From IMG/VR virus record IMGVR_UViG_2541047736_000005, positions 1 to 3,227 of that record: a stretch of 3,227 bases of DNA; one strand, written 5' to 3'. This DNA comes from a virus. Lineage: Duplodnaviria; Heunggongvirae; Uroviricota; Caudoviricetes. The notes below the pieces were generated by a model, which saw only the letters and a program-made list of their open reading frames with translations, did no database searches and had not been told where the DNA came from. Numbering within the stretch: the stretch's first letter is position 1; each line of letters opens with the position of its first letter. Made by a program: the position numbers and the translations under genes. This document shows positions 1-3,227 of this stretch, piece after piece.

Positions 1-19
1 TTTTACTTCTTCATGCCAA

Positions 20-37
20 AAGGGAGCTATCTCCCTT
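20..37 (+). terminator. Candidate intrinsic terminator hairpin for a gene ending upstream of the window
   Basis: Perfect 7-bp inverted repeat AAGGGAG (20-26) / CTCCCTT (31-37) with 4-nt loop CTAT, followed by GTTTGAATTG. The U-tract is weak and the stem is only moderately GC-rich. Confidence 0.25.
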
Positions 38-148
38 GTTTGAATTGAAAAGTCCAGGCTGCAAAGTCTGGGCTTTTGTCGTATTAGGGCACGGTAAAGT
101 TTGGCTGTGCCCGTAAAAAATGGCTGGCTATACACAAGGAATGTGGCA

Positions 149-706
149 ATGAGTGGTGAAAAAAAGGCGAAAGGCTGGCGGTTCTATGGTCTTGTAGGTT
201 TTGGCGCAATAGCACTGCTTTCCGCTGGCGTCTGGGCGTTGCAATATGCTGGCAGTGGGCCAGAAAAAACGTTGTCGCCGCTGGTGGTGCACAACAATCT
301 GCAAATCGATCTCAATGAGCCGGACCTCTTTCTCGACAGCGACTCTCTGAGCCAGCTTCCCAAAGATCTCCTCACCATTCCGTTTCTCCACGATGTTCTG
401 AGCGAAGATTTCGTTTTCTATTATCAGAATCATGCCGATCGTCTGGGCATTGAAGGCAGCATTCGTCGTATTGTCTATGAACACGATCTCACGCTGAAAG
501 ATAAGCTCTTTTCGTCACTCTTAGATCAGCCCGCGCAGGCAGCGCTGTGGCACGATAAACAAGGCCATCTTTCACATTATATGGTGCTGATCCAGCGCAG
601 TGGTTTAAGCAAACTGCTGGAGCCATTGTTGTTTGCCGCTACCAGCGACAGCCAGTTAAGCAAAACGGAAATCAGTAGCATCAAGATAAATAGTGAAACT
701 ATTTGA
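149..706 (+). CDS. Hypothetical protein with N-terminal signal-anchor/TM helix, function unknown (185 aa)
   Basis: Six-frame ORF 101..706. I place the start at ATG 149 because AAGGA at 136-140 gives an 8-nt spacer, whereas the TTG at 101 has no RBS. Stop is TGA 704-706. After a basic KKAK stretch comes a hydrophobic segment WRFYGLVGFGAIALLSAGVWALQYAG, then a hydrophilic domain rich in D/E/L/S. No catalytic motif recognised by eye. Confidence 0.6.
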   Translation: MSGEKKAKGWRFYGLVGFGAIALLSAGVWALQYAGSGPEKTLSPLVVHNNLQIDLNEPDLFLDSDSLSQLPKDLLTIPFLHDVLSEDFVFYYQNHADRLGIEGSIRRIVYEHDLTLKDKLFSSLLDQPAQAALWHDKQGHLSHYMVLIQRSGLSKLLEPLLFAATSDSQLSKTEISSIKINSETI

Positions 707-781
707 TGCGCCGCGCGATAAATGCACTCTATCTTGTGCGATAAATGGCATCCACGCGGCGTTTCATTATTTGAAAAAGAA

Positions 782-1354
782 TTACATTTCAGGTTGCGTT
801 ATGACAGTCCCAACAGGGTGGTAGCGGTAGATCGTTGACAGTCCAATATCATAGATAATTGCCAGCCGCTTTCTGTCATACCCTTTCTGGAGCAATCTTG
901 CGATCTGCTCATGCTGCTCCTTCGTCAGTTTCGGGCGACGTCCTCCAACTCTCCCTTGTGCTCGCGCAGCAGCCAGTCCTGCCAGCGTGCGCTCAACTAT
1001 CAGTTCACGCTCCATTTCTGCCAGTGCACCCATCATATGAAAAAAGAACCTTCCCATCGGAGTGCTGGTATCGATTGAATCCGTCAGACTGCGAAAATTG
1101 ACACCTTTTGCGCGTAGCTCTTCTGTGAGAGCAATGAGGTGTTTCATTCTTCTACCCAACCGATCCAGCTTCCAGACCACCAATGTATCCCCTCTTTTAA
1201 GGCACTTTAAAGCGCGTTTCAGGCCTGGTCGTTCCGACTTGGTTCCGCTCATTTTGTCCTCAAAAATCTGTTCACATCCTGCGCACATTAATGCATTGCG
1301 TTGCAAATCTGTGTTTTGGTCATTTGTTGACACACGTATGTAGCCAATCAGCAT
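782..1354 (-). CDS. pin: Small serine recombinase, DNA invertase of the Hin/Gin/Cin/Pin family (190 aa)
   Basis: N-terminus MLIGYIRVSTNDQNTDLQRNAL carries the catalytic Ser in the RVST motif. Central blocks GDTLVVWKLDRLGR and SLTDSIDTSTPMGRFFFHMMGALAEMERELIVERT and a C-terminal HTH-like IGLSTIYRY match the hallmark blocks of this family. ATG is the complement of 1352-1354, with a GGGAG RBS (complement of 1363-1367, 8-nt spacer). It lies directly beside tail-fibre cassettes, as in Mu G, P1 C and e14 P. The symbol is family-level only; I cannot say which pin allele. Confidence 0.95.
   Translation of the reverse strand: MLIGYIRVSTNDQNTDLQRNALMCAGCEQIFEDKMSGTKSERPGLKRALKCLKRGDTLVVWKLDRLGRRMKHLIALTEELRAKGVNFRSLTDSIDTSTPMGRFFFHMMGALAEMERELIVERTLAGLAAARAQGRVGGRRPKLTKEQHEQIARLLQKGYDRKRLAIIYDIGLSTIYRYHPVGTVITQPEM
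1201..1261. promoter_or_regulatory. Candidate Fis-dependent recombinational enhancer inside the 5' part of the invertase gene
   Basis: Two 15-bp elements with G at position 1, C at position 15 and an AT-rich centre: GGCACTTTAAAGCGC (1201-1215, nearly palindromic about TTTAAA) and GCTCATTTTGTCCTC (1247-1261). Their centres are about 46 bp apart. In Hin/Gin/Cin systems the enhancer lies within the first ~100-180 bp of the invertase gene with two Fis sites about 48 bp apart. Pattern match only. Confidence 0.25.
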
Positions 1355-1408
1355 TAAAAATACTCCCTTTTGAGTGGTTAAAGTACTGAGATAATGTGGG
1401 GAGGATTT

Positions 1409-1434
1409 GAGAGATAAACGTTGGTTTGGGCGAA
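1409..1434. promoter_or_regulatory. Candidate recombination crossover site (gix/hix/pix-like) at the invertase-proximal border of the invertible segment
   Basis: GAGAGATAAACG TT GGTTTGGGCGAA has the AAACx-NN-GGTTT core typical of Gin/Hin crossover sites. The right half-site GGTTTGGGCGAA matches the recalled consensus GGTTTTGGATAA at 9 of 12 positions; the left half matches only in the inner AAAC. The site sits between the invertase start and the fibre cassette, and the cassette reading frame opens exactly here (in-frame TGA at 1408-1410). Confidence 0.45.
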
Positions 1435-1890
1435 ACGATAAATAAAGCCTCCGGAGCTATGCAGAAATCGGCTAATGGAGCTGATATTTCTGATGTATCA
1501 GCCTTCCGAAATGCGCTCCAGTTAGGGGCCGCCGCAACACGAGATGTTGGAGCAGATAATGCCTCGAAGTTACTGGATTTAGACAGCTTCAGGTCAATGA
1601 TGTCAGGGAATGGCTACATCTACATTCCATGCATTGCGACGACAGGAAACCCGGTGAAACTTATGTTGCAGTGGGGAACGGTGGCAACACAAAAGGGAGC
1701 TGATGCTGGATATGCCTTACCATTTGCTTTTCCCTATGCAGGCTTGTTTGCGACCGGAAACCGTGGAACATCTGGCTACAATGCCGCGATGAATGTGCGT
1801 ATTGCCAGCAGAACGCATATCAGTATTCAGAACTGGTCGCCATCCGGAGAGGGCACCGAAGATTGTTGTTTTATCGCGCTGGGGTATTAA
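1411..1890 (+). CDS. Tail-fibre C-terminal (receptor-binding tip) cassette, apparently the silent alternate arm of the inversion switch; no own start or RBS
   Basis: Frame is open from 1411 to TAA 1888-1890. The first in-frame start candidates are TTG 1426 and ATG 1459, with no convincing RBS. The product shares the motif LQLGxAAxRDVG and a C-terminal ...A[IL]GY end (CCFIALGY versus HFEAIGY) with the minus-strand fibre. Its 159 codons are similar in size to the short fibre fragments I recall next to pin in e14. Confidence 0.8.
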   Translation, partial: EINVGLGETINKASGAMQKSANGADISDVSAFRNALQLGAAATRDVGADNASKLLDLDSFRSMMSGNGYIYIPCIATTGNPVKLMLQWGTVATQKGADAGYALPFAFPYAGLFATGNRGTSGYNAAMNVRIASRTHISIQNWSPSGEGTEDCCFIALGY

Positions 1891-1892
1891 GA

Positions 1893-2303
1893 ATGAATAA
1901 ATTTTATAAAGGCTCTTTCTATCCGGAAGCACTAAAAGATGTATATATCAGCGCCGGCTCATGGCCTGAAAACGGCGTTGATGTTGATGATGAAACAATG
2001 GCAATTTACACGGGTGTCGTACCACAGGGTAAAATGCTAGGTTCCGATAAAAATGGCAACCCTGCTTGGGTGGATATTCCGCCTCTTTCAACGGAGCAAT
2101 TAGTTGCCATTATGGAGCAGAAGAAAGGGAAACTTCGTTCGATAGCCGATGCTGAAATTAGCTGGCGACAGGATGCCGTTGATGCAGGGATAGCGACGAA
2201 AGAGGAAACCGCCGCGTTATCTGAATGGAAAAAATACCGGGTCCTGCTGATGCGCGTTGATACAGCAAAACCCGTATGGCCTGTCAATCCGCAGGATATT
2301 TAA
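1893..2303 (+). CDS. Tail fibre assembly protein (Tfa chaperone), 136 aa
   Basis: ATG 1893 lies 2 nt after the fibre stop, suggesting translational coupling. The C-terminal block [31 protein letters not shown] matches the conserved C-terminal chaperone motif of lambda-type Tfa proteins as I recall it (...[25 protein letters not shown]...). The track ORF starts at 1863, but that overlaps the fibre and I prefer 1893. Stop is TAA 2301-2303. Confidence 0.85.
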   Translation: [136 protein letters not shown]

Positions 2304-2517
2304 CGGGGGCGTTGTAGGTGGTGACATATTCAAGCAGTTCTGTTGGATATGTCACCGTTGCTGCATCTCGCTCTACGTTAAATGTATCCGCTCCCCAGAT
2401 AACACACTCCCTCAAAAATGCCTCCACCTCTGGCGAGACTTCAACCGCATCATCAGGTCGCTCTTGTTCAGAAACATAAAAACCAACGGTCGTTGGGCTG
2501 AAATAGATATTCTCCAT
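2284..2517 (-). CDS. Tfa-like N-terminal domain only (77 aa); probable truncated or decayed tail fibre assembly gene
   Basis: ATG (complement of 2515-2517) lies 2 nt after the minus-strand fibre stop, the same junction architecture as the plus arm. N-terminus MENIYFSPTTVGFY...PDDAVEVSPEVEAFL resembles Tfa N-termini of the IYFSA..FY type. The ORF stops at TGA (complement of 2284-2286) without the conserved C-terminal ATKEE..W.KYRVLL.RVD block, and the track shows no minus-strand ORF that could supply it by frameshift. It overlaps the 3' end of the plus-strand tfa by 20 bp. Confidence 0.55.
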   Translation of the reverse strand: MENIYFSPTTVGFYVSEQERPDDAVEVSPEVEAFLRECVIWGADTFNVERDAATVTYPTELLEYVTTYNAPVKYPAD

Positions 2518-2519
2518 AT

Positions 2520-3227
2520 TTAGTATCCTATTGCTTCAAAATGCAGTGTCGGTGTTTCGCCGAGATTGGGTGTCGTATACGCCACAGTGAATCGCGTTCT
2601 TGATACGTCAGTGCCAGAATCAGTATCGCGATGCGTTGCCAGTGATTTTCCGGCCATTGTTGACTGGGTCGGATAGCTGTAACTCGCTAGTGTTGCCAGC
2701 GTTGCTATTTGTGCATTTGGGAATTGTCTGGGGAAATTAACCCTGTAGTAATGGGTGTAGTACGTCACCCCACCAAGCACCTGCGAGTTGAAGTTACCAA
2801 CTGGTGTCAGTGTCACAGTGCCAGCCTGTCGAATCATACCATTTGGGAGAATATCCCAGGCAGTTTGTCCGTTTCGCGACATACCAAATGCGGACATGTC
2901 CGGGAGTTGATTATTACCGGTTCCGACATCCCGTTTTGCCGCTTCTCCCAATTGAAGGTAATTGAGGACTTCTTTTATACTGCCCATAGCGATAATAGCG
3001 CGACCAATAGCTGTAAGGGTTGTCAGCGCTGCGCGGTCTGCTCCGGTAAAATAAGGCAACCGATCTGCTGCAGTGGCAAGTCCTGCCAGAGCAGTGAGCG
3101 TGGCATCTGCCGGTTGTTTTCCGTTTGCCAGATCGTATGCAGCCTTGACCGCTTTCGGTGTGGCGGCCAGTATTTCAGACGTGCTGTTGATGTCACTGCT
3201 CAATTGTACGGTGCCTTTTGCCGTCAG
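2520..3227 (-). CDS. Tail fibre protein, C-terminal portion (partial; 5' end lies beyond the right edge of the window)
   Basis: The reading frame is open from the window edge (3227) down to TAA (complement of 2520-2522); the M in the track at 3203 is a TTG inside an open frame. SDINSTSEILAATPKAVK...NGKQPADATLTALAGL...LPYF resembles the conserved region of lambda-like side tail fibres (recalled, unverified). It is followed by a divergent tip ending HFEAIGY. Confidence 0.9.
   Translation of the reverse strand: MTAKGTVQLSSDINSTSEILAATPKAVKAAYDLANGKQPADATLTALAGLATAADRLPYFTGADRAALTTLTAIGRAIIAMGSIKEVLNYLQLGEAAKRDVGTGNNQLPDMSAFGMSRNGQTAWDILPNGMIRQAGTVTLTPVGNFNSQVLGGVTYYTHYYRVNFPRQFPNAQIATLATLASYSYPTQSTMAGKSLATHRDTDSGTDVSRTRFTVAYTTPNLGETPTLHFEAIGY

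Follow-up and report, generated by a model that had tools for sequence, protein, structure and literature searches.

A probable host-range inversion switch with two opposed tail-fibre tips at the right end of an Escherichia coli prophage

The right end of a Mu/BcepMu-like prophage of Escherichia coli carries, with a probability of about 0.88, a host-range inversion switch of the Mu G-segment type, in which the tip of the tail fibre is swapped by DNA inversion. The module lies in positions 1 to 3,227 of the IMG/VR virus record IMGVR_UViG_2541047736_000005 (Caudoviricetes), and this whole stretch of 3,227 nucleotides is here called the window. Its layout was obtained from a six-frame list of open reading frames (ORFs) and Pfam (Table 1). 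It shows a gene encoding a serine invertase, pin, beside a segment in which two fibre tip cassettes face each other: tip 1, followed by the chaperone gene tfa1, and tip 2, followed by a small gene named ORF77. The reading is built on features that were directly observed: the anatomy of the window, the family to which the invertase belongs, the precise point of exchange, the in-frame fusion of the tips and the natural occurrence of both states. A first-pass annotation of the same DNA had already proposed a host-range inversion switch; the family of the invertase, a second crossover site and the presence of both orientations in genomes support that proposal.

Eight loci (L010-L017) were retrieved by exact look-up of Tfa1, and the window was compared with them by BLAST. 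L015 (GCA_014747445.1), an E. coli contig, is 100% identical across all 3227 bases. L016 (CP164724.1) shares the junction with the chromosomal gene yfaA and matches window positions 1-1437 at 99.65%; positions 1418-2959 are then found on the opposite strand, and the match resumes at 2940-3227. The segment is in the window state in L010, L013, L014 and L015 and in the flipped state in L011, L012, L016 and L017, and a pattern search over the eight loci found only parental junctions in four and only recombinant junctions in four. Furthermore, L010 and L011 have a 2.8 kb host flank with 100% identity and show opposite orientations. Orientation heterogeneity, which was sought, is therefore present at identical insertion sites (L015/L016 in yfaA and L010/L011), and since these two independent same-site pairs differ only by the flip, inversion appears to be recent and recurrent. 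Reversible inversions of the fibre region confirmed by PCR have been described in E. coli ST131, in prophages labelled 'Entero_P88' and 'Entero_BP-4795' by PHASTER, and the same study describes a translocation of the fibre region in a 'Burkho_phiE255'-labelled prophage and notes that the P88 and phiE255 prophages carry genes for DNA invertases (bioRxiv 10.1101/2022.05.07.487787).

The second crossover site, for which the sequence around the segment was also searched, lies within the fibre gene. Site A, proximal to pin, reads GAGAGATAAACG-TT-GGTTTGGGCGAA, and site B, on the minus strand, reads TCCTCAATTACC-TT-CAATTGGGAGAA. The two 26-bp sites are inverted relative to each other, have identical 2-bp cores (TT) and are alike at about 14 of the 20 bp around the core. 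In L016, the junction beside pin is GAGAGATAAACG-TT-CAATTGGGAGAA and the junction within the fibre gene is TCCTCAATTACC-TT-GGTTTGGGCGAA; the halves of A and B have been exchanged reciprocally and precisely at the common TT (AL-TT-BR and BL-TT-AR), and the same is found in L011. Reciprocal hybrids at TT are the signature of a serine invertase, with a 2-bp staggered cut central in the 26-bp site. The inner half of site A, GGTTTGGGCGAA, matches the inner half-site of Mu gix, GGTTTACAGGAA, the whole gix being TTATCCAAAACC-TC-GGTTTACAGGAA, and is one base off the inverted repeat published for the e14 P segment, TTGGTTTGGGAGAAGG (PMC12529663). Compared with this inner half, the outer half of site A and the whole of site B show more degeneracy. 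A generic inverted-repeat search of the window missed both crossover sites, because they are too imperfect, and they were located through the comparison of orientation variants. Homology to loci with other cassettes begins at 2942, beside site B. The internal QLGAAATRDVG of tip 1 was considered as a third, cryptic crossover site and rejected, as the core there has a sequence other than TT and none of the recombinants is joined at it.

Because the evidence on orientation comes from assemblies, an assembly artefact or homologous recombination between inverted repeats was raised as the origin of the apparent inversion, with no specific support of its own. The resemblance between the two sites is far below what RecA-mediated recombination or assembler collapse would need, both junctions combine the two sites reciprocally, to the base, at a 2-bp core, and the same outcome is found in independent complete genomes and in draft contigs; we consider this explanation extremely improbable. 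Nor is the arrangement due to chance, since the window is 100% identical to L015 and the segment 1423-2954 is inverted with exact hybrid junctions in sister genomes.

The effect of the inversion can be read in the fibre gene. The fibre ORF in the window shows Phage_fiber_2 and Gp53-like_C domains, and the constant end of the gene reads ...CTC AAT TAC CT/T, where the slash marks the exchange. In the window state it is followed in frame by CAA TTG GGA GAA (L-N-Y-L-Q-L-G-E-A-A-K), and in the inverted state by GGT TTG GGC GAA ACG, also in frame (L-N-Y-L-G-L-G-E-T-I-N-K), as in L016 (...LNYL/GLGETINKA). Cassette 1 lacks a start codon of its own in the window orientation, and inversion joins it to the constant fibre in frame. 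Tip 1 is the C-terminus of the fibre in the four flipped genomes (L011, L012, L016 and L017), and tip 2 is there a silent 125-aa ORF adjoining pin. Intact fibre ORFs of 427-651 aa are found in both states. In L015, the full fibre ORF (10628-12556, about 640 aa) is intact and lies within an uninterrupted tail/baseplate operon. The two opposed fibre C-terminal cassettes of the first-pass annotation are thus present, with one correction: the variable part of tip 1 already begins at 1423, before the TTG at 1426. The fibre shaft is made of tandem Phage_fiber_2 repeats of 168 bp or 56 aa (window 3118-3227; L015 10628-12556), and as the copy number of the repeat differs among near-identical prophages (427, 528, 539, 590, 642 and 651 aa), the length of the fibre is variable.

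Tip 1 ends with ...FIALGY-TAA, followed by GA and the ATG of Tfa1, and tip 2, whose ORF runs on the minus strand from beyond 3227 to 2520, ends with ...FEAIGY-TAA, followed by AT and the ATG of ORF77. Each alternative tip is thus followed by a partner of its own, Tfa1 after tip 1 and ORF77, a presumed assembly factor, after tip 2. The GY-TAA-NN-ATG pattern had been reported for both arms, as had a LQLGxAAxRDVG motif and A[IL]GY ends common to both tips, and all of these are present (ALQLGAAATRDVG in tip 1 and YLQLGEAAKRDVG in tip 2). The tips had been called divergent elsewhere, and BLASTP indeed aligns only 32 residues of the neck, with 53% identity and E = 5e-05, while the remainder is unalignable. 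Such dissimilar sequences are consistent with different receptors.

The serine invertase was found where it had been placed, with a Pfam Resolvase domain in residues 3-135 (E = 8e-51) and an HTH_7 domain in residues 138-180 (E = 1e-12). Among solved structures, the best matches of Pin are those of Mu Gin (4m6f and 3uj3), with E = 2e-93 (314 bits) across residues 1-181, whereas gamma-delta resolvase is matched at 1e-32 (116 bits) and the gamma-delta and Tn3 resolvases together span 1e-32 to 3e-26. The C-terminal domain of Hin matches Pin at E = 1e-10, and PHROG 125, 'DNA invertase', at 1e-94. Membership of a resolvase or transposon resolvase family, against which the protein was checked, is ruled out by this score gap, and Pin groups with the invertases. 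Aligned globally, it shares 72.6% of its residues with Mu Gin and 75.5% with PinE of K-12, and its catalytic Ser9, in GYIRVSTNDQ, aligns with Ser9 of Gin, the position mutated to alanine in 3uj3. According to NCBIfam, none of the five window proteins has a name above the cut-off, and all hits of Pin lie under the curated cut-offs. The ORF is intact, and an identical Pin protein is found in 27,240 blocks of the assembly index. In addition, two Fis-like 15-mers are found in pin, GAGGACAAAATGAGC centred at nt 101 of the gene (94-108) and GCGCTTTAAAGTGCC centred at nt 147 (140-154), and Mu gin shows Fis-like 15-mers at the two matching positions, which is suggestive of the usual Fis enhancer in the 5' part of pin, as a candidate.

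We propose that Pin would bind the imperfect inverted 26-bp sites A (1409-1434) and B (2943-2968), cut both at the central TT, exchange strands and flip the 1.53-kb segment 1423-2954, probably assisted by Fis on the enhancer within pin. The fibre gene would be transcribed from outside the segment, its constant part ending in ...LNYL. In the window orientation, read-through would continue into tip 2 (QLGEAAKRDVG...AIGY), with ORF77 2 nt further on, and in the inverted orientation it would continue in frame into tip 1 (GLGETINKA...ALGY), with Tfa1 2 nt further on. Virion populations would then differ in which of the two receptor-binding tips they bear, each tip having its own assembly partner. 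Catalysis of the inversion of the adjacent segment by Pin is a prediction, and we infer that the segment is flipped by Pin and not by a trans-acting invertase. Fis would be needed for the inversion, the two tips are expected to recognise different receptors, and ORF77 would act as a chaperone.

Several points weigh against this reading. Site B matches the gix consensus poorly, at about 5 of 12 positions per half by hand count; no sigma-70-type promoter for pin was found by a consensus scan; the candidate Fis sites, with centres 46 bp apart, are recognised at the level of the motif; the heterogeneity of orientation is seen between genomes and not within a culture; and ORF77 is without the C-terminal Tfa domain and without a solved relative, so that the assembly competence of tip 2 is putative. 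The degenerate site B and the consensus scan without a pin promoter would also fit a fossil switch, in which the local Pin or its sites are no longer active and the differences in orientation come from rare past events or from prophage invertases acting in trans. Cross-reaction within the Pin family speaks for the same explanation, as PinQ, PinR and PinE each invert the e14 segment (PMC12529663). However, the same-site pairs differ in orientation with flanks that are 99.65% (1-1437, L016) and 100% (2.8 kb, L010/L011) identical, which implies recent and frequent flipping, and each state is found in four of the eight loci. The Pin ORF is also intact, with the catalytic serine kept and the protein unchanged throughout its many blocks of the assembly index. 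A fossil is accordingly an improbable explanation, and we favour a switch that is still flipped.

The chaperone claim of the first-pass annotation, a Tfa start on both arms, stands for the position of both genes and, as regards the family, for Tfa1 alone. Tfa1 is canonical, and compared with its copy in the e14-like prophage L009 its whole-gene dN/dS is 0.18. The middle of the gene (window 1980-2220 against L009 ~7060-7300) is 58-85% identical, and the rest of the invertible segment is ~100% identical; on this comparison, the middle appears to be a small recombination patch within the chaperone gene. ORF77 has no Pfam or NCBIfam hit. It aligns with PHROG 188 (Tfa) in residues 1-31 only (E = 9e-05), and the conserved C-terminal Tfa domain (PF02413), present in Tfa1, is absent from it. 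Its AlphaFold2 model has a pLDDT of 91.7 and an alpha/beta fold, with no significant neighbour among solved or viral structures. Homologues of ORF77 number 34: 24 have 77-80 aa, and the others are shorter partial sequences or extended ones (84 and 99 aa). Their identity to the query is as low as 59%, and the named sources include Citrobacter, Enterobacter and Phytobacter. In non-inverting P2-like prophages, the family occupies the slot of gene G, between the fibre and the sheath and after tip-2-type fibres, and it co-varies with the tip (84% identity in the tip with 74% in the ORF, and 53% with 59%). Four loci (L022-L025, 4001-4243), from metagenome, sequencing-run and JGI assemblies, show the family at the P2 gene-G position in P2-like prophages that have neither an invertase nor a canonical Tfa. 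We conclude that ORF77 is the partner of tip 2 and probably an assembly factor, and that it is not a member of the Tfa family.

The segment also behaves as a module. Eight further loci (L001-L008) have an identical Pin and the same 26-bp sites with unrelated Collar-type tip cassettes (~8200-9930 in each), and their DNA identity is 99.3-99.7% through site A and 96-98% from site B on. In the e14-like prophage L009, the interior of the segment is the same, ~100% identical except for the middle of Tfa1, and pin and the constant fibre are 50-80% identical. The breaks in identity coincide with the crossover sites, and borders this sharp suggest swapping of entire invertible segments between phage lineages. 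Breaks at the sites fit the long-held view of invertible fibre segments as modules that move horizontally. A combined proposal goes further: ORF77 would stand for a minimal kind of tip chaperone, or of accessory protein, that has not been described before and that replaces gene G beside one Gp53-like_C tip lineage in P2-like and Mu-like phages, and whole invertible segments would be swapped between unrelated phage lineages with the crossover sites as module borders. We hold it tentatively, at somewhat under even odds. The suggestion that the cassette pair might be new has little left in its favour: among RefSeq E. coli genomes, e14-like prophages carry these cassettes with ~100% of the nucleotides identical, and public assemblies contain them in at least 88 blocks. 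No experimental study of this cassette allele was found in the literature.

Among L001-L008, the loci L004-L007 show three tip cassettes each, which suggests that these sister prophages carry multi-site (Min-like) inversion arrays. In L007, a P4-like satellite with integrase, Psu, Ogr/Delta and AlpA genes occupies positions 1-7500 in place of the baseplate region and adjoins a truncated fibre gene. It carries a reverse transcriptase (RVT_1) and a SLATT_5 gene, a cargo that may be a retron-type defence.

Table 1. Features of the window, with their coordinates, strands and the evidence for each.
Feature	Position	Strand	Evidence
Truncated yfaA (DUF2138), first ~185 residues	149-706	+	Profile positions 2-176 of 560, E = 1.7e-85
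Transposable prophage terminus, begins TGATGCGCCGCGCGATAAATGCA..., two GCGATAAATG motifs	704-781		Start of homology (701-704) between copies located at many chromosomal sites
pin, 190-aa Gin/Pin-type serine DNA invertase	782-1354	-	Pfam, PHROG 125, Gin structures
Candidate Fis-dependent recombinational enhancer in the 5' part of pin	1201-1261	-	Motif and homology
Crossover site A (pin-proximal), core TT at 1421-1422	1409-1434	+	Hybrid junctions in L016 and L011
Tip cassette 1 of the fibre, silent, 155 aa, Gp53-like_C	1423-1890 (ORF 1426-1890)	+	Pfam 1.4e-08
Tfa1, canonical tail-fibre assembly chaperone, 136 aa	1893-2303	+	Pfam Caudo_TAP 4e-31; PHROG 188 5e-43
ORF77, 77-aa partner of tip 2, presumed assembly factor	2284-2517	-	Position and co-variation; no Caudo_TAP
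Fibre tip cassette 2, 144 aa, Gp53-like_C, expressed in the window orientation	2520-2954	-	Pfam; continuous with the fibre ORF
Crossover site B within the fibre gene, core at 2955-2956	2943-2968	-	Hybrid junctions in L016 and L011
Constant fibre 3' end (Phage_fiber_2 repeat and neck), runs past the window	2957-3227	-	Pfam Phage_fiber_2 2e-17
Invertible segment, 1.53 kb	1423-2954	both	Opposite orientations in sister genomes

The prophage terminus at 704 (TGATGCG...) resembles the Mu right-end sites R1 and R2, and its two GCGATAAATG motifs, at 717-726 and 738-747, look like transposase-binding sites and are candidates for this role. The reading frame of yfaA is closed by a TGA created at the phage terminus, so that the gene is cut after ~185 codons. 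No identical yfaA insertion was found among RefSeq complete E. coli genomes, a set that does not include the accession of L016, and the chromosomal sites of the copies include aroA/serC, aaeB, rpoS, rpoD, dps, ppsA, csiE, lptF and dcuC. A sister prophage flanked by split csiE (L021) encodes a DDE transposase, an ExeA/MuB-like ATPase, Gam, Mor and gp16, together with Mu-type head genes, P2-type tail genes and lysis genes, and its gene set is complete by annotation except for IS66 insertions. Judged by these genes and termini, the host element is a BcepMu-like transposable phage inserted in yfaA of E. coli. L021 shows two copies of an IS66-family element (ISCro1), at 2281-4896 and 40863-43478; one of them breaks a tail-fibre assembly gene inside the invertible region, and that copy of the switch is therefore probably disabled. 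Scans of the window for promoters and terminators gave nothing above chance, and Rfam gave no RNA family match. A 14-bp inverted repeat, GGTGACATATTCAA / TTGGATATGTCACC, with 93% complementarity, is located at 2320-2356, past the Tfa1 stop and within the 3' end of ORF77, and no T-run follows it.

A switch of this kind might serve the host instead of the virion, if the inversion yields a fibre-derived receptor blocker against other phages, an effect reported for PinQ, PinE and the e14 P segment. In e14, inversion of the P segment is reported to create StfE2, a protein that blocks adsorption of T2 (PMC12529663); the cassettes of the window, in turn, are ~100% identical to those of the e14-like prophage. 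Against this, genes for the head, the tail and lysis, as well as for a transposase, Gam and Mor, are present in the sister L021, and the fibre in the genome of the window itself is full-length, ~640 aa, in an uninterrupted tail/baseplate operon, so that the virion is the simplest beneficiary. Service to the host is unlikely as the main role, at odds of roughly one in sixteen or so by our judgement, and the two readings are not mutually exclusive.

The nearest known system to the proposed virion-serving switch is the Mu G segment (Gin; S/U and S'/U'; gixL and gixR). The gene order is alike, with the constant fibre, a tip and its chaperone, a convergent chaperone and tip, a crossover site and the invertase, and in both cases a transposable phage carries the switch at its right end. 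The crossover also falls in a homologous codon position, N-L/G-L-Q-E-T-V-N-R-A at gix of Mu and Y-L/G-L-G-E-T-I-N-K-A here. The two differ in several respects: the segment is 1.5 kb here and ~3 kb in Mu, the core is TT here and TC in Mu, the Gp53-like_C tips are unrelated to Sv and S'v of Mu, and one presumed chaperone is a 77-aa non-Tfa protein. Furthermore, unlike in Mu, no com/mom genes follow the invertase, the phage end lying 78 bp past the pin stop, and the backbone is BcepMu-like with P2-type tail genes. The e14 P segment (PinE; stfP, tfaP, tfaE and stfE) has the same architecture and an invertase 75.5% identical to Pin. However, the cassettes of K-12 e14 are other alleles: in forced global alignment, the tips are 27-30% identical to StfP and StfE, and Tfa1 is 24-31% identical to TfaP and TfaE. 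The constant fibre and pin flank are only 50-80% identical even to the e14-like L009, and e14 is defective and site-specifically integrated, whereas this element is transposable and has sister copies with a full gene set.

P1 C/Cin, p15B Min and Salmonella Hin belong to the same Din family and have in common with this switch a serine invertase of ~190 aa and 26-bp sites built around a 2-bp core, and a Fis enhancer in the invertase gene is expected. Hin flips a promoter, not coding cassettes, and Min has six sites, compared with only two here. Invertible fibre segments have been textbook knowledge since Mu G, P1 C and e14 P, in line with the first-pass annotation, which had called the class well known. 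The window brings no conceptual novelty: it holds an uncharacterised allele of a textbook system that is widespread in public E. coli assemblies, and the small ORF77 family at the chaperone position is its only mildly new element. Its natural recombinants also map a Pin-type crossover cleanly to the 2-bp core at quite degenerate sites. Assemblies of one strain may legitimately differ over this 1.5-kb region and, if the reading holds, lysogens of a widespread E. coli prophage family would release virions with two alternative receptor specificities.

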